Position numbers and translations under genes: made by a program. Below are positions 16,677 through 47,441 of a stretch of 64,000 bases of DNA, one piece after another (the stretch's first letter is position 1; every line of letters begins with the position of its first letter). The stretch lies in IMG/VR virus record IMGVR_UViG_3300045988_144476. One strand, given 5' to 3'. Source of the stretch: a virus. The notes below the pieces were generated by a model. The model saw only the letters and a program-made list of their open reading frames with translations, was not told where the DNA came from and ran no database searches.

Positions 16677-16954
16677 CATTAAAAGAATTATTTAAACAAG
16701 GAAAGCTTCATATTGGTGTAAGCGAAATAAAACAATTTTCAGCAGTTAATATTGGATTTATGAATAATGGAAAAGAAGATGAAACGCAGCTTGATGTTAC
16801 ACATAATATTCTAACAAAGTATGGACAGGAAGAGTTAAATGAATTATTTGAATGGTTTGCAAAAGAATGTAAAGTGCCAAAAGATTCTGTTACATATTGT
16901 GAAGTCGTAGCTACTGCAAATACATATAAAGAATTAATTGAAATGGGATATTGA
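16673..16954 (+). CDS. hypothetical protein
   Basis: 93-aa ORF, ATGA overlap. Confidence 0.6.
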   Translation: MTLKELFKQGKLHIGVSEIKQFSAVNIGFMNNGKEDETQLDVTHNILTKYGQEELNELFEWFAKECKVPKDSVTYCEVVATANTYKELIEMGY

Positions 16955-16963
16955 GGTGATATT

Positions 16964-17365
16964 ATGGGATCATGTTATTGGGTTAAATTAAAAGTTAAAT
17001 TAAATAACAAAGCGAAAGCAATTAAGGCTTTACAGGATAAAATATCCAGAGCTAAGGAAGAAAATGTAGATTATGGATTAACATCATATGTAAAACACAA
17101 AAATTATAATTTAAATAATTTTGATGATTTAATCAAAATATTTCTCTGTGAACATCAAGGTGATTTTGAGGTTGAGACTGTAGAAAATGGATTTACAAAG
17201 TATTCTTCTGGATTTGATGCTTCTTATGGATGGGAAAGCCTAATGATTGAGATGTTTAAAGAGATTTCTCCATATCTGGAAGACAGATCAAAATTATATA
17301 TTAATTGTGATGATGGATGGTACGAATTTGTTGTAGCAAATGGAAAATGGTATCAAACACATTGA
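16964..17365 (+). CDS. hypothetical protein
   Basis: 133-aa ORF, GAGGTG SD. Confidence 0.65.
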   Translation: MGSCYWVKLKVKLNNKAKAIKALQDKISRAKEENVDYGLTSYVKHKNYNLNNFDDLIKIFLCEHQGDFEVETVENGFTKYSSGFDASYGWESLMIEMFKEISPYLEDRSKLYINCDDGWYEFVVANGKWYQTH

Positions 17366-17374
17366 GGTGATTAA

Positions 17375-31200: not shown

Positions 31201-34200
31201 ATGAATAAGACTATAAGAATTAAAGAATTAGTAAGAATGTTAAATATGTATTGTGATGCATATTACAACAGAAATGAAAGTATTATCTCAGATAAGGAGT
31301 TTGATAAATTATATGATGAATTATTAGACTTGGAAAAGGAAACTGGGATTATATTAAGTAATTCCCCAACGCAGCACGTTGGATATGAAGTTAAGAGCGA
31401 ACTGCAGAAGGTAAAACATAGCCATCTTATGATGTCTTTGGATAAGACTAAAGATGTTAATGAATTAATTAAATTTATTGGGAACCATGAATGTGTGCTG
31501 ATGAATAAGATGGATGGGTGTTTTATTGGAGACACTAGAATTACCATGGCAAATTATAAAACAAAGAAAATCAAAGATATTAAAATAGGAGATGAAGTAT
31601 TGTCGTATGATTTAAATGGAAAAATATGTACGTCAAAAGTTAAAAATATATATAATAATGGACTCAAAACATTTGATGAGTGGGTCGATTTACAATTGTA
31701 TGATTATTTATTAAAATCAAATAAATATCATGTTACATGTACAAAAAATCATAAAATTTATACACCAAATGGATATAAAGAAGCCGGTAATTTAAATGTG
31801 GGAGATTATGTTTATGTGCATAATAAAAAAATATCACAAGATCAATCAGATATTTTATTAGGAATTTTATTAGGAGATGGTTGGTTTGTAAATAGATCAA
31901 AATTAAAAGAAAAATCTCTTAAAAATAAATTAGAAATTCATTATTCTAAAACAAAGTCAAAACATTATGATGATTTAATATATCAATTACAAAAGAAGTT
32001 TATTACATTCAATTCAACAATATCATATAGAACTTCTGGATATTCAAGTAAAGAAAATAATATGGTTAATTTAAATTTGGGAGTAATTGATGTACCAGAT
32101 TATTTCTGTAACTCTAAAAATCATTTAAGATGTGGTTTTACTTTTACTGAAGAGATATGCAAACATTTATCACCATTAGCTCTTGCAATGTTTTATTTGG
32201 ATGATGGAAGTAAAATACAATGTCAAAATGATGGTTTTGACGTTTATAATGTAAAAAATACATGTTTATTACATACGAATAGACATAAAAAAGAAAGTGT
32301 AAAAATTTTAAGTGATTATTTAAAATCTATTGGTGTATCAAATAATATAAGATTTGAAAAATGTTTAAAAAATTATGATTTTGGTGATGGATATATTATA
32401 TATATTGATGCAGAAGGTACAGAAGTATTTTTTGATATGATTGCTAAATATATTCCAAAAGAATTCCGGAAGATTAAATTAGGATTAAAGGATAAATGGC
32501 AAAATTGCGAATGTTTTAATTTCGAAGATGACGATAGTAATTATTCATTAATAGAAACTCAAATTACAAATATCAAAAATGGATTTAGAAGAAGTCCATC
32601 ACAATCACATATAACTAGAAAAACTGCGTATGATTTAGAAATTGAAAATACACATTGTTATTTTGCAAATGGATTTGCTGTTCATAATTGTACAATGCTT
32701 TTAACATATGAAAATGGAGAATTAATTCAAGCTGAAACGAGGGGAAATGCTACAGTTGGTGAACTTGTCACCCATAATGCGAAAGTGTTTGAAAATATTC
32801 CGCTTCATATTGATTACTCTGGTTATCTTGAAGTTGAAGGTGAAGCAATCATTACATATAATGATTTTGACAATATTAACGATACAATCAAAGATCCGGA
32901 TAAAAAATATAAGAATCCGCGAAATCTTGCGGCAGGATCTGTACGGCAGCTTAATAGTGAAATTGCAAAAGGAAGACATCTTAAGTTTATTCTATGGAAA
33001 GTTCCAACTGGGATGAATCATATTAATAGCTTTAAAGAAAGACTCGAAAATGCAAGAGAAGTAGGATTTGACATTGTTCCTTTTGTAACTGTAGATTCAG
33101 CAGAAGATATAAATGGAGCAATTGATGGGTTGAAGAATGTAGCTAAGAATTTGTCTTATCCTATCGATGGCATGGTAATCACTTATGAAGATATTGATTA
33201 TGGTTTATCTCTTGGCGTAACGGATAAATTTCCAAGGCATTCATTTGCATTTAAATTTTATGATGAGGAATACGAAACTACACTGCAGGATGTTGAATGG
33301 ACCATTGGAAAAAGTGGACAACTTACACCAACCGCAGTATTTGAACCGGTAGAAATCGATGGAACAGAAGTATCCAGAGCGAGCCTTCATAATGTAAGTA
33401 TTTTTAAAGCATTTGATATGCATGTTGGAGATACTATTATGGTGTATAAAGCCAACCAGATAATACCGCAAATTAAAGAGAATTTATCAAAGGGAAGTAA
33501 TACCGGTACAAAATTAAGTATTCCACAGAAATGTCCGTATTGTGGAGAACCTACTATAGTTGTTAAAGAAAATGATTCTGAAGTATTAATGTGTTTGAAT
33601 GCTCAATGCCAGGGTAAGTTGCTTGGTGAATTATGTGCTTTTGTAGGAAAAAAAGCTCATGATATTAAAGGGTTATCAGAAGCTACACTATCTCTTATGA
33701 TTCATACAGGAATGGTACATTCTCCAATTGATTTGTATCATCTGGAAGATAAGAGAAAGGAATTAACTTATTTTCCAAAAATGGGATCTAAAAAAGTAGA
33801 TAATATCCTTAAAGCAATTGAAGAAAGTAGAAATACTACTTTAGAGAAATTTATTGTAGGACTTAATATTCCTTTGATTGGAAGTCGTGCTGCAAAAGAT
33901 ATTGCTAAACATGAAGAGATAAGAACAAAAGAAGCGAAATTAGTTAAACCTATTAATACATTTATAGTAGATGCAGCAGAAAATTATGATTTCACACATA
34001 TTGAAGGATTAGGTATAGAAAGAAATAATTCTATTCATAACTATTTTAAAGAAAATTATGATTATGTTTGCGCTATGGCATCATTATTTAAATTTCCTGA
34101 GATGAATTTAGAAACAGAAAACATTTCTACTTCAACATCTTTAGAAGGAAAAAAATTCTGTATTACAGGGAAATTACAGAAATTTGCAAATCGTGATGCT

Positions 34201-34368
34201 CTTGTAGCTGATATTGAAGCAAAAGGAGGTAAAGTTGTGTCCGGAGTAACTAAGGCAACAGATTATCTTATTACAAATGATAAGACAAGTGGATCCAGTA
34301 AGAATAAAAAAGCTGCTGAATTAAGTATTCCTATTATTAGCGAAGAAGAATATATTAATTTATCATAA
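31201..34368 (+). CDS. ligA: NAD-dependent DNA ligase LigA, intein-containing precursor
   Basis: N-terminal Ia-like DKEFDKLYDEL, MMSLDK, KMDG adenylation motif. After the intein: TRGNATVGE, Cys4 zinc finger CPYCG...CLNAQC, HhH region, C-terminal BRCT (GKKFCITG). Confidence 0.92.
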   Translation: MNKTIRIKELVRMLNMYCDAYYNRNESIISDKEFDKLYDELLDLEKETGIILSNSPTQHVGYEVKSELQKVKHSHLMMSLDKTKDVNELIKFIGNHECVLMNKMDGCFIGDTRITMANYKTKKIKDIKIGDEVLSYDLNGKICTSKVKNIYNNGLKTFDEWVDLQLYDYLLKSNKYHVTCTKNHKIYTPNGYKEAGNLNVGDYVYVHNKKISQDQSDILLGILLGDGWFVNRSKLKEKSLKNKLEIHYSKTKSKHYDDLIYQLQKKFITFNSTISYRTSGYSSKENNMVNLNLGVIDVPDYFCNSKNHLRCGFTFTEEICKHLSPLALAMFYLDDGSKIQCQNDGFDVYNVKNTCLLHTNRHKKESVKILSDYLKSIGVSNNIRFEKCLKNYDFGDGYIIYIDAEGTEVFFDMIAKYIPKEFRKIKLGLKDKWQNCECFNFEDDDSNYSLIETQITNIKNGFRRSPSQSHITRKTAYDLEIENTHCYFANGFAVHNCTMLLTYENGELIQAETRGNATVGELVTHNAKVFENIPLHIDYSGYLEVEGEAIITYNDFDNINDTIKDPDKKYKNPRNLAAGSVRQLNSEIAKGRHLKFILWKVPTGMNHINSFKERLENAREVGFDIVPFVTVDSAEDINGAIDGLKNVAKNLSYPIDGMVITYEDIDYGLSLGVTDKFPRHSFAFKFYDEEYETTLQDVEWTIGKSGQLTPTAVFEPVEIDGTEVSRASLHNVSIFKAFDMHVGDTIMVYKANQIIPQIKENLSKGSNTGTKLSIPQKCPYCGEPTIVVKENDSEVLMCLNAQCQGKLLGELCAFVGKKAHDIKGLSEATLSLMIHTGMVHSPIDLYHLEDKRKELTYFPKMGSKKVDNILKAIEESRNTTLEKFIVGLNIPLIGSRAAKDIAKHEEIRTKEAKLVKPINTFIVDAAENYDFTHIEGLGIERNNSIHNYFKENYDYVCAMASLFKFPEMNLETENISTSTSLEGKKFCITGKLQKFANRDALVADIEAKGGKVVSGVTKATDYLITNDKTSGSSKNKKAAELSIPIISEEEYINLS
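31519..32688 (+). mobile_element. intein with LAGLIDADG homing-endonuclease domain
   Basis: Begins CFIGDT directly after KMDG and ends AVHN followed by +1 Cys (CTMLLTYENG); LLGILLGDGWF and LAMFYLDDGS dodecapeptide motifs; 390 codons. Confidence 0.88.
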
Positions 34369-34387: not shown

Positions 34388-34416
34388 TTGACATACGAAG
34401 AAATGTGTGATATAGT
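34388..34416 (+). promoter_or_regulatory. sigma-A-type promoter with extended -10
   Basis: TTGACA, 17-nt spacer, TGaTATAGT; motif copies on both sides (34366, 34435). Confidence 0.65.
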
Positions 34417-34434
34417 AACATCAACAAATGCAAA

Positions 34435-34449
34435 TAAAGTTTTAATCAA
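34435..34449 (+). repeat. 15-nt motif, variant
   Basis: TAAAGTTTTAATCAA. Confidence 0.6.
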
Positions 34450-34462
34450 AAGGAAATAAAAA

Positions 34463-35182
34463 TTGAAAAAGAAGAAAAAGCAATATTACATTGCAAATCA
34501 TAAAGATACCAAGTTTTTATGTTCAACAAATATAGATATATCTTCAATTACACATGAATTTGACAAAGCGATGATTTTTCAGAATGCAACTAGGCCAGGT
34601 CAAATCATAAGGATGCTACCTAAAGCAGTGCAAAAATATGGTCCTTTTGAAATTCATGTTGTTAAAGATATTTCGCAGCCTGATCTATTAACAGCAGAAG
34701 ATATAACTAAAATTTTAAGTGAAAATAAAACTAGTGTTGATTTGCAAGAGAAAACAGAAGTAAAAGTAGAATGTAAAAAAGAATTTGATTTTCAAGAAAT
34801 AAAAGATGAGTTGAATTCTTTTGCACCAAAACTCAAATCTATGCTTGATCAGCAGGAAATGTTGAAACTTGAATTATCTAATATTGATCTTGAAATATCA
34901 GATATTCTTCATTATATAGAATTTCATAGATTTTCAGCATGTGAAGGATATAAACTTGCTAAAATGATACAGGTTGCTAGTGATAAAAGGAGAGAAATAA
35001 AAAAACAGCTGGAAGTAATAAATATATTTAAAACGAGTACCTGCACATCAATATCATCAGGACATCTTATAAATAAAATTGATAATGTAGATGATAAAAT
35101 ATATAGACCAAGAATTCTTAATAATTTATTTGAGAATGGAAAGAATAAAGAAAGAGAAAATATTAAAGTTAATTATAATTAA
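34463..35182 (+). CDS. hypothetical coiled-coil protein
   Basis: 239-aa ORF, TTG start 9 nt after AAAGGA. Confidence 0.55.
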   Translation: MKKKKKQYYIANHKDTKFLCSTNIDISSITHEFDKAMIFQNATRPGQIIRMLPKAVQKYGPFEIHVVKDISQPDLLTAEDITKILSENKTSVDLQEKTEVKVECKKEFDFQEIKDELNSFAPKLKSMLDQQEMLKLELSNIDLEISDILHYIEFHRFSACEGYKLAKMIQVASDKRREIKKQLEVINIFKTSTCTSISSGHLINKIDNVDDKIYRPRILNNLFENGKNKERENIKVNYN

Positions 35183-35194
35183 TGATTTAATCAA
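35180..35194 (+). repeat. 15-nt intergenic motif copy
   Basis: TAATGATTTAATCAA followed by AAGGAG. Confidence 0.7.
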
Positions 35195-35208
35195 AAGGAG
35201 AGACAGAA

Positions 35209-37281
35209 ATGAATTTTAACGATTTTAACAAAGCAATCACAGATCATTTTGAAGAAATGACAAAAGATGTCAAAAGAGTATTTGAAGTTGAATTTGATTA
35301 TGAGGAAATGAATAATCTTTATCTTGATTCTTTTCCGTCAGGCACAAATGAAATTTATCGAAAGAGAAGAGAATATGATTGTAGTTGTTGTAGACATTTT
35401 ATTCGTGATATTGGTAATGCAGTAGTAATTAAAGATGGAAAACTTCATACAATCTGGGAATTGGATATTGATGATAAAGTTTATTCTGTAGTAGCAAAAG
35501 CTCTCGATCAGTATATTCGAGAGAAAGCAATTAAAGGTGTATATCTCAGAAAAGAAAAAAGAATTGGAACCGCTATTAGCAGAGAAATACTTCCAACTGG
35601 TGAAATTCATAAATATGATCATTTCTATATTGATCTTCCGAAAATTTGCATTTATGAGGAAAGATATAGTTCTACTTTAGATGGAGAAAAAGGGAAATTT
35701 AGAGATACAAGAAATGTGTTTAAAAGATCGCTTGATGAAATTGATCCGGAAGCTGTTGATACAGTTCTTGAATTGATTGGACAGAATTCATTATACAAAG
35801 GATCTGAATGGAAAGCAGTTCTGCAGGAATTCAAGAAATATCAGAAAGAATACAAGAAACTTACAGATATAGAAAAAGAACTTTGGACCTGGGAAAAATC
35901 AATTGACATTGGAATGACAGTTGGTCGAATTAGAAATCACAGTATGGGAACATTACTTGTTAACCTGTCTGAAGGAATGGAACTTGATACTGCGGTAAAG
36001 AAATACGAACAGATTGTAGCTCCTGCAAATTATAAGAGGCCAAAGGCAATCTTTACTAAGAAGATGCTTGAGGATGCAAAGAAAACAATTTCCGAACTTG
36101 GTTATATGGATTCTCTTCAGAGAAGATTTGCAACTCTTGATGATATTACAGTAAATAACATTCTATTCTCTAATAAAGATGCTACTAAGAGAATTTCTGG
36201 TGCAGATGATCTATTTGGAGAGATGGAAAAAGATGTTGCAATCAATCCGAAAAAGTTCTCTAAGGTAGAAGAAATTAGTGTAAGAGACTTTATTAATAAT
36301 GTTCTTCCTACAGCAAAAGAACTCGAAGTGTTCTTAGAGAACAAACATGAGAAAAACATGGTATCACTCATTGCTCCGGAAAATAAAGAAGCGAAATCAA
36401 TGTTCAAGTGGAATAATTCATTCTCATGGGCTTATACAGGTAATATTACTGATTCTGATATTAGAGAAAATGTAAAGGCTGCAGGTGGATCTGTAACAGG
36501 TGTACTTAGATTTTCTATTCAGTGGAATGATGGTGGAAGAGATAATTCAGATCTTGATGCACATTGTATTGAGCCAAACGGAACAGAAATTTATTATGCT
36601 ACTTATAAAAAACCAAGAATGACAGATATGGGCGGTCAGCTTGATATTGATATTATGGAACCATTTTCACAGTGTAAAGCATCAAATGGAGTAGCAGTAG
36701 AGAACATTACATATGCTACAAAATCAAGAATGAAACCTGGTACATATAAATTCTTTGTAAATCAGTATTGTTCAAGAGGATCTAAAGGCTTTAAAGCAGA
36801 GATTGAAGCAGATGGCGAAGTTCATTCTTATAAATATGATAAGCCGGTACGTAGAAACGTTCAGGTCGCTGAAGTTATTATGGATGAAAATGGTAACTTC
36901 AAGATTGTTGATAAACTCGATGGAAATAGTGCGATGACAAGTAAAGATGTATGGAAAGTTAAAACAAACCAGTTTATGCCGGTATCTGTTGTATGCTATT
37001 CTCCAAACTATTGGGACGAACAGAAGGGAATTGGACATCAGCATTTGTTCTTTATGCTTAAAGATTGTGTGAATCCGGAAGAGCCGAATGGATATTACAA
37101 TGAATTCTTAAAACCGGAACTTGAGCAGCATAAGAGAGTATTTGAAGCTCTCGGAGCTAAAGCACATGTAAAAGATGTAGATGATCAGCTTTCTGGTATT
37201 GGATTTAGCCTTACTAAGAGAAATGATTTGATTGTTAAAGTCAAAGGTGCAACTGAAAGGGTATTGAAGATTAAATTTTAA
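35209..37281 (+). CDS. large protein of unknown function
   Basis: 690 aa; YDCSCCRHFIRD cluster near N-terminus; C-terminal domain with acidic dyads SDLDAHCIEPNG...GGQLDIDIMEP. Confidence 0.8.
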   Translation: MNFNDFNKAITDHFEEMTKDVKRVFEVEFDYEEMNNLYLDSFPSGTNEIYRKRREYDCSCCRHFIRDIGNAVVIKDGKLHTIWELDIDDKVYSVVAKALDQYIREKAIKGVYLRKEKRIGTAISREILPTGEIHKYDHFYIDLPKICIYEERYSSTLDGEKGKFRDTRNVFKRSLDEIDPEAVDTVLELIGQNSLYKGSEWKAVLQEFKKYQKEYKKLTDIEKELWTWEKSIDIGMTVGRIRNHSMGTLLVNLSEGMELDTAVKKYEQIVAPANYKRPKAIFTKKMLEDAKKTISELGYMDSLQRRFATLDDITVNNILFSNKDATKRISGADDLFGEMEKDVAINPKKFSKVEEISVRDFINNVLPTAKELEVFLENKHEKNMVSLIAPENKEAKSMFKWNNSFSWAYTGNITDSDIRENVKAAGGSVTGVLRFSIQWNDGGRDNSDLDAHCIEPNGTEIYYATYKKPRMTDMGGQLDIDIMEPFSQCKASNGVAVENITYATKSRMKPGTYKFFVNQYCSRGSKGFKAEIEADGEVHSYKYDKPVRRNVQVAEVIMDENGNFKIVDKLDGNSAMTSKDVWKVKTNQFMPVSVVCYSPNYWDEQKGIGHQHLFFMLKDCVNPEEPNGYYNEFLKPELEQHKRVFEALGAKAHVKDVDDQLSGIGFSLTKRNDLIVKVKGATERVLKIKF

Positions 37282-37295
37282 TCTTTAATAATAAA

Positions 37296-37310
37296 TAATG
37301 ATTTAATCAA
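37296..37310 (+). repeat. 15-nt intergenic motif copy
   Basis: TAATGATTTAATCAA followed by AAGGAG. Confidence 0.7.
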
Positions 37311-37323
37311 AAGGAGTAGAAAA

Positions 37324-37701
37324 ATGGAATTAACAAACGTATTTGAAAGGGCAGCTATGAATAAGTACAGATTTCCTTATAAGGGACAGATTTCTGTAGA
37401 AGATCTTTGGGATCTATCTCTTCCAGGACTTGATTCTGTATTCAAACAGCTTAACAAGCTGAAAAAGGTAAATGAAGAAGAAAGTCTTCTTGAAGTAAAA
37501 TCTGCAGAAGATGTAGAAGTAGAAGATAAGATTGCTATTGTGAAATTTATTGTTAAATATAAACAGGACGCAGCACTTGCAAGACTTACCGAAAAAGAAA
37601 ATAAAGAATACAATCAGAAAATTATGGCTATTATTGAAAAGAAACAGGATCAGGCACTTGAAAATATGTCTGTAGAAGAACTTCAGAAACATTTAAGATA
37701 A
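37324..37701 (+). CDS. hypothetical protein
   Basis: 125-aa ORF, AAGGAG SD. Confidence 0.65.
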   Translation: MELTNVFERAAMNKYRFPYKGQISVEDLWDLSLPGLDSVFKQLNKLKKVNEEESLLEVKSAEDVEVEDKIAIVKFIVKYKQDAALARLTEKENKEYNQKIMAIIEKKQDQALENMSVEELQKHLR

Positions 37702-37718
37702 ATAAAGGAGAGAAACAA

Positions 37719-40343
37719 ATGAACGGATTAAGTAGTAAAGAAGTTTCTCAGAGTAGGGCTTTACATGGGAGCAATAAGCTCCCTGAGCCTAAAATGAAGA
37801 AATGGTATCATTTTGCAAAGGAAGCATTAACAGAGTCAATTACAATGATTCTTATTGCAATTGCAGTATTTCAGATAATTCTTGGAGTTATTGGCGTAGC
37901 AGAAATTTCTGAACCAATTATGATTCTTGTGGTACTTTCAATTGTAACAGGAATTGCAATTAAAACAGGTCTTGGTGTACAGAAATCAGCGGCAGAATTA
38001 AAAGCGAAAACATCTCTTAGGTACTGTGATGTAATTCGAGATGGAAAATTACAGACAATTAATAAAGATGATCTTGTAGTTGGTGATATTGTAATCATTA
38101 GAACTGGTCAGGAAATATTCGCTGATGGATATATTGTTGAAGGAAAAATTTCTGTAAACAATGCAGCTATTAATGGAGAATCAAAGGAATGCAAAAAGAC
38201 TCCGATTGATGGATATAAACATGTAAAAACTACATCAACAGATGCATATACAAATCAGAACTGCTTATTTGCCGGTACAACTGTAATGTCTGGAGAAGGT
38301 AAGATGATTGTAACGGAAGTTGGTGTTAATACAGTAAATGGTGATACTCTTGTAAAGATGCAGACACTTGAAGCACCTAAAACAGCACTTGATATTGCTC
38401 TTGATAATCTGTGTGATTTTATTTCTAAATGGGGAACAATTGCAGCAGTATTAGCATTTGTGATCATGACAGTTTCTGGAATTATGCAGGCCGGTGGTAT
38501 GTCGCAGTATTTCAATGGAGGTATTCTTGAAAATATCCAGAAGATTGCTACTAATTTCTCAATTGCATTGACTATTATTGTTGCAGCTGTTCCGGAAGGA
38601 TTACCGCTTATTGTAAAACTGGTAACGAAACAGAATGTAAGTACAATGGAAAAATTTAATATCCTTGCTAAGAATCCAGGAAAAATTCCTGAGCTTGCAT
38701 ATGTAAATCTTATTTGTACTGATAAAACAGGGACGCTTACAACAGGTATTATGACACCAAAAGTAATGGTGAATGGTGCTTGCGAAGATATTATGAATGA
38801 TAAAGATTCTGTTGCTGCAGGTCTTATTAAGAATAATGTATGTTTAAATAATAGTGCTGATTATGATGCTGACGGAAATATTACTGGTGGTAACTCAATT
38901 GATCGAGCAGTATTAGGATTATATTCAAAGGGAGATTGTAGAATCGTTAAAGAATCATTTGCAGTAAAAAACAGACTTCCTTTTAGTAGCGAGAATAAGT
39001 ATTCTGCTATAGAAGTTGCTAGTTTAACAGCTGATGCACAGATGACTTTATATAAAGGTGCTCCTGAAAAACTTATTCAGAGATGTTCTTACTACATTGC
39101 AAACAGTGGAGAAGTAAAACAGTTTACAGATTCTGATAGAAAAGCAATGGAAAGTTATATTAAAGGACTTACAGAAAAAGCAATGAGATGTATTGCTCTT
39201 ACAATGTCTGATTTCTTTAAGGAAGACGAACTTCCGAAAGATATGACATTACTTGGAGTAATCGGTGTTGTTGATCCACTTAGAGAAGAAGTTCCAGATG
39301 CTGTAAAGACTGCAAATAAAGCGGGGATCCAGGTAATTGAAATTACTGGTGATTGTCTTGAAACAGCAAAAGCAGTAGCAGCAGAAGCTGGTATTTATCA
39401 TCCTTGGGATAAGGCAATTACAAATGATGAATTTGAAGCTATGTCAGATAACGAAGTAAAAGAAATCATTCCTAAATTAAGAGTTATTTCCAGATGTTCA
39501 CCTAATACAAAACTTAGGTTAGTAACTCTTGCTCAGGAAATTGGAATGTCTGTTGCTATGACAGGCGATGGTGTTAATGATTCCCCAGCATTAAAAAAAG
39601 CTGATGTAGGATTTGGAATGGAATCTGGATCTGATGTTGCGAAAGAAGCAAGTGATATTATTCTTACAGATAATAACTTTGCATCAACTGTAAAAGCAAC
39701 GGAACTTGGTAGAACATTTATGCACAATATTATGATGTTCCTTGAGTTTCAGCTGCCAATTAACATTTCATTACTTATCTTAAGTATGATTTATCCGGTA
39801 ATTTCTGGTGGAGCTGCATTACTTGCATCGGTACAGATTCTAATTGTGAATATTATCATGGACTCTCTCAACTCACTGAGTTTTGGTGGCGAGCCTCCAA
39901 AAGCGGAATATATGAAAGAGAAACCAATTAAAAAGGGATCTGGATTATTTATTCGTGGTGCTAAAAAGAGAATTGCTTTATCAACAATCGTATTTATTGT
40001 TTTGTTTGGTGCGATTACATATGGTCCAATTGCGGCAATATTTGCTACACCAGAACTGGCTATTACAGCAAGATTTGCATTACTTTGTTTTATGGCTGTA
40101 TTTAATGGATTTACAATTAGAACGGAAAGCATAAATCTTTTCAATGGCCTTGGTAAGAATAAAGCTTTTTCAGTAATTGCTGTTGGAATTATAGCTATGA
40201 CATTGTTTTTATGTAATATTGCAGGAAGTCTTGTGCAGACAACACCTCTTGATTTAAGACATTGGATTACGGTAATTGTTGTGGCATTTATGATTGTACC
40301 GGTTGATATTATTAGAAAAGGAATTAAAAAGATTAAAAAATAA
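37719..40343 (+). CDS. P2-type cation-transporting P-type ATPase (Ca2+-ATPase-like)
   Basis: ICTDKTGTLT phosphorylation site, AAVPEGLP (TM4), YKGAPE, EITGD, TGDGVNDSPALKKADVG; multiple TM segments. Confidence 0.93.
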   Translation: MNGLSSKEVSQSRALHGSNKLPEPKMKKWYHFAKEALTESITMILIAIAVFQIILGVIGVAEISEPIMILVVLSIVTGIAIKTGLGVQKSAAELKAKTSLRYCDVIRDGKLQTINKDDLVVGDIVIIRTGQEIFADGYIVEGKISVNNAAINGESKECKKTPIDGYKHVKTTSTDAYTNQNCLFAGTTVMSGEGKMIVTEVGVNTVNGDTLVKMQTLEAPKTALDIALDNLCDFISKWGTIAAVLAFVIMTVSGIMQAGGMSQYFNGGILENIQKIATNFSIALTIIVAAVPEGLPLIVKLVTKQNVSTMEKFNILAKNPGKIPELAYVNLICTDKTGTLTTGIMTPKVMVNGACEDIMNDKDSVAAGLIKNNVCLNNSADYDADGNITGGNSIDRAVLGLYSKGDCRIVKESFAVKNRLPFSSENKYSAIEVASLTADAQMTLYKGAPEKLIQRCSYYIANSGEVKQFTDSDRKAMESYIKGLTEKAMRCIALTMSDFFKEDELPKDMTLLGVIGVVDPLREEVPDAVKTANKAGIQVIEITGDCLETAKAVAAEAGIYHPWDKAITNDEFEAMSDNEVKEIIPKLRVISRCSPNTKLRLVTLAQEIGMSVAMTGDGVNDSPALKKADVGFGMESGSDVAKEASDIILTDNNFASTVKATELGRTFMHNIMMFLEFQLPINISLLILSMIYPVISGGAALLASVQILIVNIIMDSLNSLSFGGEPPKAEYMKEKPIKKGSGLFIRGAKKRIALSTIVFIVLFGAITYGPIAAIFATPELAITARFALLCFMAVFNGFTIRTESINLFNGLGKNKAFSVIAVGIIAMTLFLCNIAGSLVQTTPLDLRHWITVIVVAFMIVPVDIIRKGIKKIKK

Positions 40344-40356
40344 AGGAGAATTTAAA

Positions 40357-41142
40357 ATGGGACTGTTTAATAAACTTTTTGGAGCTAAAGAGAAATCAGA
40401 TTCAGTAGTTACGCAGCAGCCGTTTACAGGAGTAAAAGAAAATACTCCTGTGAACACCTTAAATTCATCTGCGGCTGTAATCGATATGTCAAAATCAAAA
40501 GAAAATCTGAATACTGTTCTGATTGATATGTCAAAGGGAAGCAAAATTGATATGACAAAACATGTTGCCAGAGTAGCACTTGCAATGGATTATTCCGGAT
40601 CTATGGATCGTTTATTTGCTAACGGATCTGTACAGAAAACAATTTCAAGATTACTTCCTATTGCTCTTAAATTCGATGATAATGGTGAGCTTGAATCTTG
40701 GTTATTCTCTACCGATTACAAACGTCTTGATACTGTTACAGAAAATAATTTCGAAAATTATGTCAAAAGAGTAATGCAGAGATCTGGAATGTATATGGGA
40801 GGCACATATTATGAACCGGTTTTAAGCGATATGGTTAATTATTATAAAAACATTGAACCAAGCGAAATTCCAGCATTTATAATTTTTATTACTGATGGAG
40901 AGAACATGGATAAGAGTAATACAAATCGTATTATTCGAGAGCTATCTGAGTATAATATTTTTGTTCAGTTTATTGGAATCGGAAATGAAGATTTTGATTA
41001 TTTGAAATCACTTGATAAGCTTGAAGGAAGAAAGCATGACAATACTGGATTTACAGCTGTAAAAGATATGAATAAACTTGATGACCAGCAGCTTTATACG
41101 GAAATTCTTCGTCAGTATAAAGACTGGTTAAATAAGAAATAA
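40357..41142 (+). CDS. von Willebrand factor A (vWA) domain protein, TerY-like
   Basis: MIDAS box LAMDYSGSM and IIFITDGEN; start at ATG 40357 behind AAGGAG (the 40294 start lies inside the ATPase gene). Confidence 0.85.
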   Translation: MGLFNKLFGAKEKSDSVVTQQPFTGVKENTPVNTLNSSAAVIDMSKSKENLNTVLIDMSKGSKIDMTKHVARVALAMDYSGSMDRLFANGSVQKTISRLLPIALKFDDNGELESWLFSTDYKRLDTVTENNFENYVKRVMQRSGMYMGGTYYEPVLSDMVNYYKNIEPSEIPAFIIFITDGENMDKSNTNRIIRELSEYNIFVQFIGIGNEDFDYLKSLDKLEGRKHDNTGFTAVKDMNKLDDQQLYTEILRQYKDWLNKK

Positions 41143-41193
41143 ATTGAAATGCATATAGTATATTGTTAAATAATTGTAAAAGGAGAATGAATA

Positions 41194-41832
41194 ATGGCAG
41201 TAATTAATATGAGCAAGAATCAGAAGATTAGTATGACAAAGGAAGATGGATCCGCAGTAAAAACTTTCTTTATTGGGGTTAATTGGGAAGAAAATAGATA
41301 TGCAGGAGAGTCTGATATTGACTTTGATATTAATGGATTCATTACAAATTCTGATAGAAAAGTAATCTTTCCACAAGATGTCATTAATTATGCTACATAT
41401 GGAAATGGATCTGATTATCCTTGGATTGAGTATTCTGGAGATAATAGAACCGGTGATGATGCAGAAGGAATTACATTTAATGGAAAACATTTTGATGAAT
41501 ATTTTATTATTCATGATGATACTTTCCCTACTGATCGAACTGATTTTACTATCTGCCTTACAATTTTCAGAGCTATTCAGAGAAAACAGAATTTTGGTAT
41601 GGTTAGAAATGCTACGATGACTATTTGTGATTATGATAATCCGAATGGAGATAAGTATGAGTTTGATCTTTCTGAGGATGAAAATTTTGAAAATCTGAAT
41701 GCAGTTGAAATGGGTAGACTGTATAAATACGGAAATGGATTTAAGTTTCAGGCTCTTGGTACCGGTTATATGGGTGGAATGACAGAGCTGTTTAAAAACT
41801 TTGGACTTGATATTGATGAAGGGAGAGATTAA
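41194..41832 (+). CDS. TerD-domain protein
   Basis: GVNWEEN, DIDFDINGF, YSGDNRTGDDAEG, QNFGMVRNATMTI, YEFDLSED, YKYGNGFKFQALGTGY. Confidence 0.9.
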   Translation: MAVINMSKNQKISMTKEDGSAVKTFFIGVNWEENRYAGESDIDFDINGFITNSDRKVIFPQDVINYATYGNGSDYPWIEYSGDNRTGDDAEGITFNGKHFDEYFIIHDDTFPTDRTDFTICLTIFRAIQRKQNFGMVRNATMTICDYDNPNGDKYEFDLSEDENFENLNAVEMGRLYKYGNGFKFQALGTGYMGGMTELFKNFGLDIDEGRD

Positions 41833-41835
41833 TTT

Positions 41836-42582
41836 ATGAATCTTACAGCAGGCGCAGTAATTGTTATTGCAGCGATTGTAATTGTTGGTATTTTAATCTT
41901 TTGTACTAAATCAGGAAAGCGTGTCAGACTTAGAATGTCTGGCACTGCTGATGAAGTAATTTCAAAAGATGCATCTACTCCAGAAGGAGCAAAAGCATAT
42001 TATAATGTTGCAATCGAAAAGAAACAGAATGATTATAATACTGCTAATAATCTTTTAAAACAGATTGAAGGTAAAAAGGCAGGATTTGAAGATCAGCTTC
42101 ATCAGTTGCAGAAAAATAGATTTGATTGTGTAGAAAAACTTAATCAATGTATTGATTCAAATAATGATGATGGAGCAAAGCTTTATATTAAAGAGCAGCA
42201 GAATATTGATGATAAAGTAAAAACTTTAAAAGCGGCAATTAAGGATCTTGAGAAAAATGAACAACTTCAGAAAGAAACTGTTGAATCATTAGAAGCAGAG
42301 TTAAATGATCTTAAGGCCGAAAAAGACAATGCTATCTTTACTTTATCAACAGCGCAGGTTACACAGTCTCTTCAGGCAAACCCAGGAACATCTTCTAATG
42401 AAGAAGATAAAATGCTTGAAAAAGTTCGTGATGGGATTCAGAAAAAGAAAGAAGAAGCTGATGGAAATAGAATTATGTATGAGAATTCTACATATGTACA
42501 GAAGCAGCGTCTTGAAAAGAAAATGAAAGATGATGAAGTTGATAGAAAATTACAGGAGCTTAAAGCGAAGAAAGGAAAATAA
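41836..42582 (+). CDS. membrane-anchored PspA/IM30-like coiled-coil protein
   Basis: N-terminal TM AGAVIVIAAIVIVGILIF. The long helical region has layout and C-terminal segment (LEAELNDLKAEKDNAIFTLSTAQVTQSLQ...MLEKVRDGI) that parallel PspA by eye. Confidence 0.6.
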   Translation: MNLTAGAVIVIAAIVIVGILIFCTKSGKRVRLRMSGTADEVISKDASTPEGAKAYYNVAIEKKQNDYNTANNLLKQIEGKKAGFEDQLHQLQKNRFDCVEKLNQCIDSNNDDGAKLYIKEQQNIDDKVKTLKAAIKDLEKNEQLQKETVESLEAELNDLKAEKDNAIFTLSTAQVTQSLQANPGTSSNEEDKMLEKVRDGIQKKKEEADGNRIMYENSTYVQKQRLEKKMKDDEVDRKLQELKAKKGK

Positions 42583-42583
42583 T

Positions 42584-42667
42584 ATGATTGTTATTAGAAT
42601 ATGGGTATTTCTTTTGGTTATGCTTATGGCTTTTGTAGTTGGATTTGTTATAGGGAGGATTGAATAA
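42584..42667 (+). CDS. possible 27-aa membrane peptide
   Basis: MIVIRIWVFLLVMLMAFVVGFVIGRIE; stop overlaps next ATG. Confidence 0.3.
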   Translation: MIVIRIWVFLLVMLMAFVVGFVIGRIE

Positions 42668-43104
42668 TGGTTGATATTAAGAAATTGAAAATTGATGATG
42701 TTTTAATTAATAAAATTAATAAAGATAAAAAACGTGTAAAGTTTATTGCGTCAAATTATATTATTGTAGAGGATTGCAAAAATGGAAAACCTGCAATTAT
42801 GCTAAAAGAGTGTTTTACATTATATACAAAATGTCAAAAATATATTTGGACGGATTGGGAAGAATGCATGTTGTATTTTAATGATCCGTTTGATCGATGT
42901 GGTGATTGTATAACTAGAATTAAATGTAGAGTACGTAGTAATGGAAAAAGAATTCAGGTTAGATCTGGAGCTTTATCTGCAATAGCTTCTTGCAATGAAG
43001 ATTGTGGAGACAAATTTAATTTTGATAAAGGAGTAGAAATAGCAGGTAAGAGATTAATTTTAAAATGGTTATCAAATAGACTTGAAGCAGAAGTAAGAGG
43101 ATAA
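42667..43104 (+). CDS. hypothetical protein
   Basis: 145-aa ORF, GGGAGG SD. Confidence 0.6.
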   Translation: MVDIKKLKIDDVLINKINKDKKRVKFIASNYIIVEDCKNGKPAIMLKECFTLYTKCQKYIWTDWEECMLYFNDPFDRCGDCITRIKCRVRSNGKRIQVRSGALSAIASCNEDCGDKFNFDKGVEIAGKRLILKWLSNRLEAEVRG

Positions 43105-43108
43105 TATT

Positions 43109-43504
43109 ATGAAACCTATTATTAATCCATGGATCATGTATGTTATTGGGTTAGTCAATAATATAAGTTTTATATTTGCAGTAGTTATATTTTTTTTATT
43201 AAGTGCAATAATTATAGTTGCAGCAACTGGGTTTGTTAAGTTTGTTGAAAATTATGATAATTTTGATGAATTTTTAGAGGATAATCATACTGCGGTTAAA
43301 TGGTTTAAAAAAGGATGTATAAGTTTAATTATCGCAGGAATAGTAATGATTTTGATACCGTCTGAGAAAACATTGTATTCTATGGTCGTTCTTGAGAATG
43401 TAACTCCTAACAATATTGAAATTGCAGGTAATACAGGAAAAGATGTTATTGATTATTTATTTGATAAAATTGATCAAATGAATGACGAAGAGGAAGATAA
43501 ATAA
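43109..43504 (+). CDS. membrane protein (hypothetical)
   Basis: 131 aa, two or three hydrophobic segments. Confidence 0.6.
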   Translation: MKPIINPWIMYVIGLVNNISFIFAVVIFFLLSAIIIVAATGFVKFVENYDNFDEFLEDNHTAVKWFKKGCISLIIAGIVMILIPSEKTLYSMVVLENVTPNNIEIAGNTGKDVIDYLFDKIDQMNDEEEDK

Positions 43505-43884
43505 TGCAAAAAGGATTTATACGAAAAGAAATTATTCCTATCAGCGAAGTGGAAAACGCTGTAAAAGATGTAATGTTTTGTAAAAATAAGCGAGATTCTT
43601 ATGTTAATATTCGTGGAGATATTATTAAGGGAAACAGTCAACGCTTTCAGACATTTTTTACAAAAGGATTAAAATGTTCATGTTGTGGAATAGAGGGAAA
43701 ATATTTTGCAAAAGAAAAAGATCCGAATGCAGCAAGATATCATTTAAATTTATATGCCATTGATGATGACGGAGAAGAAGTATTGATGACAAAAGAACAT
43801 ATTATTCCGTTATATAAAGGCGGGGAAAATGATGTGATCAATTTTCAGACTATGTGTGAAAAATGTAATAAAAGGAATCCATAA
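43504..43884 (+). CDS. HNH endonuclease
   Basis: CSCCG...KEHIIPLYKGGENDVINFQTMCEKCNKRN. Confidence 0.8.
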   Translation: MQKGFIRKEIIPISEVENAVKDVMFCKNKRDSYVNIRGDIIKGNSQRFQTFFTKGLKCSCCGIEGKYFAKEKDPNAARYHLNLYAIDDDGEEVLMTKEHIIPLYKGGENDVINFQTMCEKCNKRNP

Positions 43885-43915: not shown

Positions 43916-43944
43916 TTGACATTTGAAATGAAGTGTGGTATAAT
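43916..43944 (+). promoter_or_regulatory. sigma-A-type promoter with extended -10
   Basis: TTGACA, 17-nt spacer, TGgTATAAT. Confidence 0.7.
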
Positions 43945-44035: not shown

Positions 44036-44109
44036 TGGGCATTCGCCAAGCGGTAAGGCTCAGCACTTTGACTGCTGCATTTTCGTTGGTTCGAATCCAA
44101 CATGCCCAG
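44036..44109 (+). tRNA. tRNA-Gln (anticodon TTG)
   Basis: Acceptor tgggcat/atgccca, anticodon arm cagca-cTTTGAc-tgctg, T arm gttgg-ttcgaat-ccaac; close to Bacillus-type tRNA-Gln from memory. Confidence 0.9.
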
Positions 44110-44135
44110 CTTATTAAAAACAAAGGAGAGAAAAA

Positions 44136-45242
44136 ATGAAAGTAGTACAGATTGATGATACATTTAGAATTTATGGTGATGATCTTAAGAGTTTTGATAA
44201 GTTACCGGCGCAGACTTATTCAGTAAGATTCTCAAAGAATTCTGGATGGTATCTTGAAAAACATGCTGATATAGAGATCAAAGAATCTAAAATCTATGGC
44301 GTACATATGGAAAAAGTAAACAAGGTTTTAAATGCTTTTAATGAGTTTAACAAGAATCTTGGAATTATACTTTCCGGAAATAAAGGAATTGGAAAATCAT
44401 TATTTGCTAAAGAATTAAGTATTCAGGCAATTGGATACGGAATTCCTGTAATTATTGTTGATACTTATATCCCTGGAATTGCTGATTATCTTGAAAGTAT
44501 TAGACAAGAAGTAGTAATATTGTTTGATGAATTTGATAAAACATTTGGCGGTGTAAAAGCACCAGATGGAATGGCAGATCCTCAAACTGAATTGCTTACA
44601 TTATTTGATGGTTTGAGTACAGGTAAGAAGTGTTTTGTAATTACATGTAATAATATGAGGAGCTTAAATGAATTCCTTATAAATAGACCTGGTAGATTTC
44701 ATTATCATTTTAGATTTGAATATCCTACAGCTGAAGAGATTACAGAATATCTTCATGATAAACTGAATGAAAAATACTATGATCAGATTGCAGCAGTTAT
44801 AAGTTTTGCTAATAAAGTTAATCTGAATTATGATTGCTTAAAAGCGATTGCTTATGAATTAAATCATGGAGATGAATTTAAAGAAGCGATTAAAGATCTA
44901 AATATTATCAATGTAAATGATATTAACTATGTCGTTACATTATACTTAAAAGATGGAAGACATGCAAATGTAACACGTTCGGTTGATATGTTTGATAAGT
45001 CTGGAGAATTTAGTTGTGATAATTTTTATATTGGAAATACTTATGTAGAAGCATCTTGTAAAATTATGGATGTTACATATGATAAGAAAAGATATGTTGA
45101 TATTGTCAATGGAGAATTTGTTTCGCTTAAACCATCATATTATGATGATGACGATGACAGTAAAAAAGAAGTTGAGAAAATGGAAGCAGATTATATGACT
45201 TTTGTTAGAGAAACAGATAAGAATATTCATTATATGGTGTAG
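44136..45242 (+). CDS. classical-clade AAA+ ATPase
   Basis: Walker A GNKGIGKS, Walker B ILFDEFD, RPGRFHYHF second region of homology. Confidence 0.85.
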   Translation: MKVVQIDDTFRIYGDDLKSFDKLPAQTYSVRFSKNSGWYLEKHADIEIKESKIYGVHMEKVNKVLNAFNEFNKNLGIILSGNKGIGKSLFAKELSIQAIGYGIPVIIVDTYIPGIADYLESIRQEVVILFDEFDKTFGGVKAPDGMADPQTELLTLFDGLSTGKKCFVITCNNMRSLNEFLINRPGRFHYHFRFEYPTAEEITEYLHDKLNEKYYDQIAAVISFANKVNLNYDCLKAIAYELNHGDEFKEAIKDLNIINVNDINYVVTLYLKDGRHANVTRSVDMFDKSGEFSCDNFYIGNTYVEASCKIMDVTYDKKRYVDIVNGEFVSLKPSYYDDDDDSKKEVEKMEADYMTFVRETDKNIHYMV

Positions 45243-45940: not shown

Positions 45941-46425
45941 TCTTAATGATTGATAGTTAACTATAAATATTCACTGTTTACTGAAAACTTTAAACTACAA
46001 CTCATCAGACTTTTTGCAGATAATAGCCTAATGTAAAATAATAAAGAAAATCTGCTTCTAATAAAACAAAATGGAAAAAGTATACAGTACTTTTTATTGA
46101 ATAATGGTGCTTACATTATTATTAATAAGATGAGTATATGTTTTCAGAATACAAGCATCAGAAATAAACAATATAGGATATCGTAGATACCTGGTTTATA
46201 AGAATGCTCGTGGATGTCTGAGTATACATATAATACGAACTGTAAAGCTTAAAGTTGTAAAGATCAAATAGTAAAACTCAAAATTCAAAGTTTATTTATT
46301 AGATCAAAGTTCAAACAGTAAATATCAAAGGTAAAAGTTTTATAAAATCCTTGAATTACAGTTTTGTGTATAGTTGTACTTGACACTAAGTATCTGCAAG
46401 GCTGGTAAATGGTGAATATTCTTAA

Positions 46426-47056: not shown

Positions 47057-47088
47057 CCTTTCTTGTGATGTTTTAACGAGTTACAAAG

Positions 47089-47164
47089 TGATATGTAGTT
47101 TAACTGGCAAAACAATCTGATTAGCGAATCAGATAGATTATTGGTTCGACTCCGATCATATCAC
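47089..47164 (+). ncRNA. tRNA-like element with closed anticodon arm
   Basis: Good acceptor (tgatatg/catatca), D arm (gttt...aaac with GG) and T arm (attgg-ttcgact-ccgat). The anticodon arm is an 8-bp helix atctgatt/aatcagat capped by AGCG (or 6 bp plus an 8-nt loop). Confidence 0.55.
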
Positions 47165-47441
47165 ATCAGGAGCTACAATCCTTAAATTATTCTAGATCCA
47201 AAACAAATTGGTGTGAGTAATTTTAAATATGTGTGACTTTCTAAGGCTTAAAGGTTTCAAGAGAAAATCAGCCGTTGCAGTGAGGTCGATAAACTGATGG
47301 CGAGTGGGAACCAGACCAGTGACATTTTGAGATTGTTTCGAAAGAGAAACGTACTGTTTTAGAGAAAATGTAGGGAATTGAGCGGCTTCAAAGAACACAT
47401 AATCCTGGTGTACTGCAGACATTCAGGTAGGATCCTTAAGG

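Follow-up and report, generated by a model that had tools for sequence, protein, structure and literature searches.

What would a bacteriophage gain from an ion pump encoded next to TerD, vWA and PspA-like proteins? The question is raised by a 64,000-nt stretch of viral DNA (IMG/VR record IMGVR_UViG_3300045988_144476; hereafter the window), in which a first-pass annotation, made from the sequence alone, had described a promoter followed by eight co-directional, tightly spaced genes as one operon. It had read them as a single phage module joining a Ca2+-ATPase-like pump to Ter and Psp components. We examined the composition, conservation and context of this locus, and find that the conserved unit is a cassette of five genes at 37719–42667.

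A conserved five-gene cassette

The cassette genes, all on the + strand, are as follows.

37719–40343, + strand: P2B (PMCA-type) P-type ATPase, putatively Ca2+-exporting, 874 aa; gene 1 (assigned by Pfam, TIGR01517 and motifs)
40357–41142, + strand: TerF-type/copine-like vWA protein, 261 aa; gene 2, variant A only (PF10138, 1e-59)
41194–41832, + strand: TerD-domain protein, 212 aa; gene 3 (PF02342, 5e-32)
41836–42582, + strand: protein of predicted PspA/IM30 (ESCRT-III superfamily) fold, 248 aa; gene 4 (PF04012, family profile, AlphaFold2 (AF2) model and Foldseek)
42584–42667, + strand: single-pass membrane peptide, 27 aa (MIVIRIWVF...); gene 5 (conserved homologues)

A scan of IMG/VR with the pump located 146 loci at 68–99% identity, 80 of which were retrieved; the 75 with at least 3 kb of downstream sequence were counted. 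The gene order pump, TerD, PspA-like was kept in 74 of them, in two compositional variants. Variant A (34 loci, including the window) has the order pump–vWA–TerD–PspA, while in variant B (40 loci) the vWA gene is replaced by two further TerD genes, giving pump–TerD–TerD–TerD–PspA with canonical TerDs scoring about 250 bits. The order was still kept where the pump was just 46% identical to that of the window (loci L096 and L097), and on contigs of 50–400 kb with differing flanks. Because the linkage of pump, TerD and PspA-like genes and the micropeptide are conserved in both variants, the conserved unit is these five genes, and it moves as a unit. The proposed eight-gene module thus stands in part: the pump, vWA, TerD, PspA-like and peptide genes are linked, whereas the three genes upstream of the pump (g239, g690 and g125) lie outside the unit. 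Carriers of the cassette form a large clade of gut Bacillota phages, on contigs of about 100–400 kb.

Three observations on individual carriers are recorded here. The 250-kb contig IMGVR_UViG_3300029402_000234 holds two variant-A cassettes (L014 and L028) about 190 kb apart with different flanks, which reflects either a true duplication or the chimeric assembly of two related phages. Some relatives lie inside very long contigs, namely scaffolds of 499 kb from Ruminococcus sp. AM36-2AA (L090) and 357 kb from AF25-28AC (P0235), and metagenomic contigs of 395–405 kb (L100/L103); these could represent prophages of unusual size, phages in a carrier state scaffolded together with host DNA, or jumbo phages with genomes near 400 kb. 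Finally, the faecal contig MT840059.1 ('Bacteriophage sp.', L105) encodes a P-type ATPase 34% identical to that of the window, followed by tandem TerD genes, an arrangement that hints at pump–TerD adjacency also outside this phage clade, possibly in bacteria.

The pump has a single predicted PMCA-type calcium site

All the P-type ATPase domains of Pfam were recovered in the pump (E1-E2_ATPase, 1e-33; Cation_ATPase_C, 2e-29). It had been described as P2-type and Ca2+-pump-like; the motifs cited for this were all found (PEGLP at residue 292, DKTGT at 335, KGAPE at 446 and GDGVND at 616), and the assignment is borne out and narrowed to P2B. The PMCA-type model TIGR01517 was the best by far, the PMR1-type model scoring 399 bits, the SERCA-type model 326 bits and the Mg2+ models also far lower. 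PEGLP, QLPIN, VNIIMD, DKTGT and GDGVND are conserved over about 87 relatives, with DKTGT kept in 86 of 87 and GDGVND in 85 of 88.

The best solved relatives of the pump are plant ACA8, SPCA1 and Listeria LMCA1. Alignment with ACA8 (8qmp) pairs VAAVPEGLPL with VVAVPEGLPL, FQLPINIS with FQLTVNVA, and VNIIMDSL with VNLIMDTL. The ligands of the single Ca2+ site II, E293 (in PEGLP), N682 (M5), and N711 and D715 (M6), are present and conserved in relatives, while the acidic residues of site I are absent, as in PMCA, and M5/M6 are PMCA-like. Since the alignment begins only at ACA8 residue 141, the pump has no autoinhibitory or calmodulin-binding extension. P2-type Ca2+-ATPases move Ca2+ out of the cytosol. 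From its family and its site residues we infer that Ca2+ is the substrate of this pump too, which is probably constitutively active and exports Ca2+ from the cytoplasm. As a separate observation, its A-domain sequence NGES, or NGET in relatives, recalls the DGET of P4 flippases.

A TerF-type vWA protein and TerD

The vWA protein matched the vWA-TerF-like family PF10138 with 202.4 bits (gathering score 29.4) and also gave a copine-like signal (Copine, 1e-8). The vWA family was one of the assignments on which the first-pass annotation had staked its reading, and it had noted an intact metal-ion-dependent adhesion site (MIDAS), D-x-S-G-S. The assignment holds, and the site is complete (DYSGS, residue 78; GGT, 148; TDG, 178). 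The most likely start of the gene is the ATG at 40357, which an AGGAGA precedes by 7 nt, and not the overlapping TTG at 40294.

The TerD assignment was likewise confirmed, PF02342 scoring 111.4 bits against a gathering score of 25.3. The TerD paralogues of variant B scored 228–280 bits, with the canonical Ca2+ loops present, and the triplets share 56–63% identity with TerDs from Bacillus phage contigs and contigs of bacterial type. Residues D43, D45, G82, D83, T86, G87 and E102 are invariant in the TerD alignment; compared with the canonical loops (DxDxD/DLDAS and GDNRTGEGDGDDE), the TerD of the window keeps DIDFD and GDNRTG and carries GKHFDE for GDGDDE. TerD alone is common in phages (138 records). 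TerD domains bind Ca2+, and by family knowledge the TerD and MIDAS-bearing vWA proteins of the cassette would both bind divalent cations.

A membrane-anchored PspA-like protein and a coupled micropeptide

The other assignment on which the first-pass annotation had staked itself, a transmembrane (TM)-anchored PspA/IM30-like protein, holds by family profile, AF2 model and Foldseek. A profile of 15 family members matched the Vipp1/PspA chains in PDB at 3e-4; several close homologues have PF04012 (PspA_IM30) in precomputed annotation, and two relatives scored 26.0 and 31.3 bits on that family, under its gathering score of 33.9. The AF2 model (mean pLDDT 76, with the hairpin above 90) places helices at residues 49–107, 111–180, 188–216 and 219–246, in the layout TM helix, α1–α2/3 hairpin, α4 and α5. 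In a Foldseek search of this model against PDB, the best 19 matches were all Vipp1, PspA or archaeal CdvB (4whe: TMt 0.75, root-mean-square deviation 2.0). The amphipathic helix α0 is absent, and a hydrophobic TM helix at residues 3–23 stands in its place in all relatives. From the profile matches, the model and the Foldseek matches, the protein is predicted to have a PspA/ESCRT-III fold in which a true TM helix replaces α0. PspA and Vipp1 stabilise damaged membranes, and this protein, by analogy with its family, may assemble along the membrane's inner face.

Few deposited phages carry classical PspA: a tblastn search of phages with E. coli PspA matched just two unverified faecal contigs. The nearest deposited relative of the cassette family is gp247 of phage G, at 30% identity. 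A cellular counterpart of the TM-anchored protein was sought in 185,579 species genomes, where all nine matches had the same phage-type context, and among the 120 matches listed in a search of 5.8 billion proteins there were only close relatives of the cassette protein.

The 27-aa TM peptide, also called in the first-pass annotation, has homologues in both variants, where a hydrophobic peptide of 27–39 aa (MIVLNIGVF..C...F..G..GK/R) follows the PspA-like gene. The PspA-like gene lies 3 nt from TerD, and the peptide starts 1 nt past the stop codon of the PspA-like gene; with few exceptions among the sequence-distinct loci examined from both variants, its start overlaps that stop or lies at most 4 nt from it. 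The peptide is on this pattern a real conserved gene, predicted to be translationally coupled to the PspA-like gene, and by analogy with known families its partner may be either the pump or the PspA-like protein.

Genomic setting and transcription unit

The window is AT-rich (about 31% G+C), and its long open reading frames (ORFs) are essentially all on the + strand. It encodes a family-A-like DNA polymerase, a DnaB-like helicase, a RecD-like exonuclease, an NAD-dependent ligase, HNH endonucleases, tRNAs and many PHROG families; judged by the polymerase, helicase, exonuclease and ligase genes, it is the replication/early region of a large phage. The whole region had no match among GenBank phages by megablast. 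The closest relative found is the 172.7-kb IMG/VR contig IMGVR_UViG_3300045988_167206, whose ATPase is 99% identical to that of the window, whereas its g690 and g239 are just 87% and 34% identical; the genomes are therefore mosaic. Further relatives sit in the 357–499-kb contigs of Ruminococcus sp. isolates and in metagenome-assembled genomes (MAGs) of Oscillospiraceae and Lachnospiraceae, which points to Oscillospiraceae-type Bacillota as hosts.

The features around the cassette are as follows.

34388–34416, + strand: sigma-70-type promoter, TTGACA-17-TATAGT with a TG extended −10; 11 of 12 positions match
34463–35182, + strand: g239, 239 aa, TTG start (partial match to phrog_32601, 3e-13)
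35209–37281, + strand: g690, 690 aa (phrog_1735, 1e-262; PF26675 in precomputed annotation; NCBI name 'YfaP family')
37324–37701, + strand: g125, 125 aa, partner of g690 (phrog_2018)
42667–43884, + strand: three small genes with overlapping or near-abutting start and stop codons, encoding a 145-aa Cys-rich protein, a 131-aa protein and a 126-aa HNH endonuclease
43916–43944, + strand: next strong promoter, 12 of 12 positions matching, driving tRNA-Gln and an AAA gene
44036–44110, + strand: tRNA-Gln
44136–45242: g368, the AAA gene

The promoter proposed at 34388 and the eight co-directional ORFs (+ strand, intergenic gaps of −1 to 51 nt) are both present. Promoter-like sites in the region numbered 87, against 91.8 expected from shuffles, so that only the quality and position of the 34388 site carry weight: it is among the three best sites in 30.5–46.5 kb, and the sole + strand site with at least 10 of 12 matches between 34.3 and 37.7 kb, that is, before the ATPase gene. 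It is likely the start of the transcription unit, and as such is context outside the conserved cassette. The end of the operon, which had been placed at the 27-aa peptide, lies further downstream. Downstream of the 34388 promoter, no + strand terminator or strong promoter was found until 43916; the unit therefore probably extends through the three small genes at 42667–43884, giving about 11 predicted co-transcribed genes and not eight, and its end is likely marked by the 43916 promoter and tRNA-Gln. The three small genes, which probably share a transcript with the cassette, are not conserved with it. The HNH endonuclease gene (43504–43884) occurs in some relatives only (e.g. L027, L028, L031 and L033; 73% identity) and probably represents a mobile element inserted where the transcription unit ends. 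A riboswitch 5' of the pump (e.g. Mn2+/yybP-type) was also sought, and no Rfam match was found in that position in the window or in the 540-nt leader of the variant-B locus L036.

The upstream genes g690 and g125 form a separate module

The three genes between the promoter and the pump had no match in Pfam (even at E up to 5), NCBIfam or PADLOC. g239 evolves fast, being 26–39% identical in relatives and variable in position. Homologues of g690 were found in 533 phage records, including Ackermannviridae, Bastillevirinae, phiCbK-like and Vibrio phages, and a g125 homologue always directly follows (TsarBomba, phiMAM1, a Vibrio phage, a Clostridioides phage, MT835544 and ME3). g690 and g125 are thus a separate and very widespread two-gene module. 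Among the 75 loci, g690 lay upstream of the cassette in 10, downstream in 11 and outside the 8-kb flanks in 54. In TsarBomba and MT835544, g690, g125 and the AAA gene g368 are contiguous, whereas in the window the cassette and a few small genes stand between g125 and g368; the cassette is therefore an insertion in the window.

The g690 protein probably contains a TerD-like β-sandwich at residues ~430–570, a segment that holds its acidic DLD/LDID dyads (RFSIQW..DLDAH..LDIDI..VENIT). Its AF2 model has a mean pLDDT of 64, with 65–89 over residues 430–570, and the two best Foldseek matches in PDB were 2qng (E 5e-4) and the TerD homologue 2qz7 (E 3e-3). A domain-restricted hhalign comparison of g690 with TerD was collinear and not significant (P = 0.046), so that the call rests mainly on Foldseek; full-length hhalign against TerD gave no match, and phmmer against PDB sequences nothing meaningful. 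In Acinetobacter phage ME3, homologues of g690 and g125 (38% identity, E 3e-143; 16072–18514 of locus L098) directly follow a Ter cluster, and a functional tie between g690 and Ter genes is possible.

Relation to known phage and bacterial systems

Abbreviated Ter operons (TerD, TerC, TerF-vWA and TelA) have been described in large phages by Iyer et al. 2021, who proposed that their sub-membrane components are used in inter-phage conflict and competition with superinfecting phages (PMC7824862). We checked several examples here. In Caulobacter phage CcrColossus, gp222–219 encode TelA–vWA–DUF475/TerC–TerD; ME3 has vWA–DUF475/TerC–TerD followed by phosphoribosyltransferase (PRTase) and HAD genes; LysYB1 and YungSlug have TerD–TerD–TerC. 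In each of the four, TerD stands beside a membrane protein of a cation-transporter family. An 856-aa 'ATPase domain protein' near TerD in YungSlug and LysYB1 was considered as a P-type pump and rejected, having neither a Pfam nor a tblastn match. Like these operons, the cassette is phage-borne and co-directional and brings together TerD, a TerF-type vWA, a helical protein lying beneath the membrane and a polytopic membrane protein of a cation-transporter family. Unlike them, it has a P2B Ca2+-ATPase in the TerC/DUF475 slot and a TM-anchored PspA-like protein in the TelA slot, carries an additional conserved micropeptide, lacks the PRTase/HAD 'signal-synthesis' genes, and belongs to phages of gut Bacillota. 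We class it as a variant of the phage Ter operon and not a member, because neither the genes at 34463–43884 nor g368 yielded a match to TerC, TerB or TelA.

Phage Ca2+ P-type ATPases, reported as previously undetected, have recently been described in Jug (jumbo gut) phages (preprint, 2025, 10.1101/2025.08.10.669567; Science Advances, 2026, PMC12880540). According to the main text of that report, such pumps also occur in 81 other huge gut phages and, as Bacillota-like pumps, in four phages of 159–197 kb; the Ca2+-ATPase and a terD–pspA-like operon are highly transcribed in vivo, and the authors proposed modulation of host Ca2+ (PMC12880540). As described there, Jug phages share with the carriers of the cassette a gut habitat, a Ca2+ P-type ATPase that lacks regulatory domains, genes for TerD, and a pspA-like neighbour of terD. 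They differ in that the pump, which is Bacteroides-like, lies in its own operon with an upstream protein of 77–91 aa, and terD–pspA is transcribed independently. In the cassette, the pump, vWA/TerD, PspA-like and micropeptide genes are contiguous, and the gene upstream is g125 or, in relatives, others. The earlier view that the module was undescribed must therefore be qualified: phage Ter operons, Ca2+-ATPases and terD–pspA-like pairs are known (PMC7824862, PMC12880540), whereas we found no description of a contiguous pump–Ter–PspA cassette, including in the main text of the Jug-phage paper. The fused arrangement, the apparent substitution for TerC and TelA and the conserved micropeptide appear to be undescribed, while the parts have been published before, as have close analogues.

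Bacterial ter/yce tellurite-resistance clusters (terZABCDEF; Bacillus yceCDEFGH) resemble the cassette in their tandem TerD paralogues, membrane transporter, helical protein and TerF-type vWA, the three TerDs of variant B recalling yceCDE. The cassette differs in having no TerB, TerC, TelA, YceG, StiP or PRTase; a cluster of the bacterial type, with PRTase, StiP, lyase, YceG, TelA and three TerDs, is found for contrast on the faecal contig MT836648.1 ('Bacteriophage sp.', L104). Phage inhibition is a classical phenotype of bacterial ter clusters. The Psp and Lia envelope-stress systems (PspA–PspBC–PspF; LiaH–LiaI) likewise encode an effector of ESCRT-III fold adjacent to a small membrane protein. 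In the cassette, by contrast, the effector is itself TM-anchored, its partners are TerD, vWA and the pump, and neither a PspF-type regulator nor a homologue of PspB, PspC or LiaI is present; comparative surveys of Psp partners make no mention of a link to Ter, Ca2+ or a P-type ATPase.

The pump itself shares its catalytic motifs, single site-II-type Ca2+ site and PMCA-like M5 with PMCA/ACA (P2B) pumps, LMCA1/SPCA and the chlorovirus Ca2+-ATPase. It departs from PMCA/ACA in the missing calmodulin-binding autoinhibitory domain and, as detailed below, in its A-domain motif and its TIGR01517 score. A more distant comparison is with the Ca2+-triggered repair of the eukaryotic plasma membrane, which combines Ca2+-binding adaptors, an ESCRT-III polymer and Ca2+ extrusion at the wound. 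The cassette resembles it by analogy only, in its putative Ca2+-binding parts (with a copine-like vWA), ESCRT-III-family protein and predicted Ca2+ extrusion; the adaptors are not homologous (ALG-2/ALIX versus TerD/vWA), and the cassette has no Vps4-type ATPase.

Other features of the window

The motif copies noted at 35180 and 37296 are real (35181 and 37297), and they belong to a family spread over the window: the intergenic 16-mer AATGWTTTAATCAAAA (at most one mismatch) occurs in 15 copies, all on the + strand, versus 0.16 expected. Sites include 2216, 8962, 30863, 34367, 35181, 37297, 43887, 61630 and 62426. Each copy lies just past a stop codon and directly before a ribosome-binding site (GGAG) or a TTGACA promoter, usually after ATAAAT. 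The 16-mer contains the near-palindrome TGATTTAATCA and may be a regulator-binding or RNA-processing site of the phage.

The NAD-dependent DNA ligase gene at 31201–34368 is interrupted by an intein with a LAGLIDADG endonuclease (Pfam Intein_splicing, Hint and LAGLIDADG_2); ligase matches are split differently in some relatives, which suggests that the intein is polymorphic for presence among them. At 47088–47165, ARAGORN reported a tRNA with an unassignable 4-base anticodon (agcg; Rfam tRNA, 45.6 bits), which may have an 8-nt anticodon loop; normal tRNA-Leu(CAA) and tRNA-Met genes lie nearby. The ORF-poor stretch that holds these tRNAs also contains, at 45970–46055, a full-length match to the RAGATH-27 RNA (Rfam RF03100; 89.6 bits, gathering score 76.1). 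A 426-aa ORF at 17375–18655 matches reverse-transcriptase PHROGs (phrog_1423, 9e-20) and could encode the reverse transcriptase of a group II intron, a retron or a diversity-generating retroelement.

Discussion

We interpret the cassette as a variant of the abbreviated phage Ter operon that controls Ca2+ and the membrane integrity of the infected cell, a reading that we hold with about even confidence. It builds on what is shown of the genes: their identities, the folds and motifs of their products, their linkage and the mobility of the set as one unit. Its proposals for expression timing, Ca2+ substrate, physical interactions and benefit to the phage would run as follows. The cassette, which lies among the ligase, DnaB-like helicase, DNA polymerase and RecD-like exonuclease genes behind a near-consensus sigma-70 promoter, would be transcribed with these early/replication genes from the host-type promoter. 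The unregulated pump would expel Ca2+ entering the infected cell; at the membrane, Ca2+ would be bound or sensed by the Ca2+-binding TerD(s) and the MIDAS-bearing copine-like vWA. The PspA-like protein, tethered by its TM helix, would polymerise on the inner membrane face, sealing or stiffening the membrane, and the coupled micropeptide would partner either the pump or the PspA-like protein, as regulins or PspB/LiaI do. Overall, this would keep the membrane intact, the proton-motive force up and cytosolic Ca2+ low throughout a long infection cycle, and the benefit would be protection against superinfecting phages, membrane-targeting abortive-infection effectors or premature lysis. Superinfection exclusion, the countering of membrane-damaging defence and lysis timing, all put forward in the first-pass annotation, are plausible candidate roles.

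Several findings weigh against this interpretation. The TIGR01517 score of the pump, 503.8 bits, falls about 3 bits below the equivalog cut-off of 507.05. TGES is a near-universal A-domain motif of dephosphorylation, and the pump has NGES in its place (residue 152), with NGET in 75 of 87 relatives; the catalytic Glu is kept. Mn2+ or another cation may be an alternative substrate, since the M6 motif NIIMD is common to SPCA pumps. The TerD of the window is of a divergent subtype, with an insertion of about nine residues inside the canonical GDNRTG-x-GDGDDE Ca2+-binding loop, so that Ca2+ binding by variant-A TerD is not assured. The match of the PspA-like protein to PF04012 (6e-8, 32.9 bits) lies 1 bit under the gathering score of 33.9, and no partner of the PspB, PspC, PspF or LiaI type is encoded beside it. 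Among the nine matches from the species genomes, there was no bacterial locus with the same gene set to inform function. Lastly, no convincing sigma-70 promoter was found directly 5' of the pump in 14 relatives with other flanks, and expression timing may therefore differ among phages.

An extension of the interpretation, which we regard as quite unlikely, is that the cassette is a self-contained, Ca2+-gated membrane-repair machine. By analogy with eukaryotic repair, TerD and the copine-like vWA would capture Ca2+ that leaks in where the membrane is breached. They would then bring in or switch on the ESCRT-III-like PspA polymer, itself tethered to the membrane, at the site of damage, while the PMCA-type pump would reset cytosolic Ca2+.

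How much of the locus belongs to one system is itself a matter of competing readings. At one extreme, the gathering could be a chance juxtaposition of unrelated accessory genes (morons), as might be suggested by the accessory-gene-rich region, the mosaic genome and the varying flanking genes of relatives. The IMG/VR synteny survey, a step that the first-pass annotation had proposed, found the gene set conserved: order and adjacency persist in 74 of 75 loci, in two compositional variants and down to 46% ATPase identity, and start and stop codons overlap or nearly abut (3 nt between TerD and PspA-like, 1 nt between PspA-like and peptide). Chance is effectively refuted by this survey and is, in our judgement, extremely improbable. 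At the other extreme, all eight genes would form one functional system with the 690-aa protein as an extra Ter-type component. Probable co-transcription in the window, the probable TerD-like β-sandwich of g690 with its DLD/LDID motifs, the position of the g690 and g125 homologues directly after the Ter cluster of ME3, and the presence of g690 within 8 kb on either side of the cassette in 21 of 75 loci all speak for it. We nevertheless see only a slim chance of this: nearly all of the 533 phage records with g690 and g125 have no pump, vWA, TerD or PspA nearby, 54 of 75 relatives have no g690 within 8 kb of the cassette, CcrColossus has no annotated gene of g690 size within 14 kb of its Ter quartet, g239 is poorly conserved, and the TerD-like assignment draws on a model of mean pLDDT 64 and an hhalign P of 0.046.

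The remaining alternatives concern the beneficiary. The cassette may be chiefly a device for superinfection exclusion or inter-phage competition, in which an altered sub-membrane layer and ion status block the entry or establishment of a second phage's DNA. Plasmid ter operons show a comparable phage-inhibition phenotype; such a role was proposed for phage Ter operons of matching architecture (PMC7824862), and it would suit components predicted to be membrane-associated and expressed early from a host-type promoter. However, the role of the phage Ter operons is itself a hypothesis, no PADLOC defence model matches any cassette protein, and a Ca2+ export pump is not obviously required. We consider this primary purpose possible and on the unlikely side; it concerns benefit and not mechanism, and is compatible with the control of Ca2+ and membrane integrity favoured above. 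It is decidedly less probable, in our view, that the cassette is a host-benefit (conversion) module acting in lysogeny, pseudolysogeny or a carrier state, where it would confer tolerance of Ca2+/Mn2+ or of envelope stress in the gut. Close relatives do lie on 357–499-kb contigs of cultured Ruminococcus sp. (AM36-2AA and AF25-28AC) and in MAGs, the variant-B TerD triplets resemble bacterial yceCDE-type TerDs, and modulation of host Ca2+ is proposed in the main text of the Jug-phage report (PMC12880540). Yet the cassette sits inside a replication-gene region with no integrase or repressor seen nearby, and the contigs of about 400 kb that carry it have phage-like flanks and need not be bacterial chromosomes.

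The function of TerD and the Ter family has been obscure for decades. Here, throughout an abundant and large gut-phage clade, TerD is locked to a pump with Ca2+-type site residues and to an ESCRT-III-family membrane protein, and the cassette offers a compact five-gene system for asking whether Ter biology concerns Ca2+ and membrane integrity. It also bears on how phages manage the host envelope and on a possible Ca2+-linked PspA response in bacteria. The recently reported phage Ca2+-ATPases belong, outside the Jug phages, to a larger module, and g690 (PF26675), a very widespread phage family, is flagged as a probable carrier of a TerD-like domain. If the repair reading were true, the cassette would be a bacterial/viral counterpart of eukaryotic Ca2+-triggered ESCRT-III repair, g690 with its TerD-like domain could join the sensing layer, and the TerD/Ter family would gain a concrete role as Ca2+ sensors of membrane damage.

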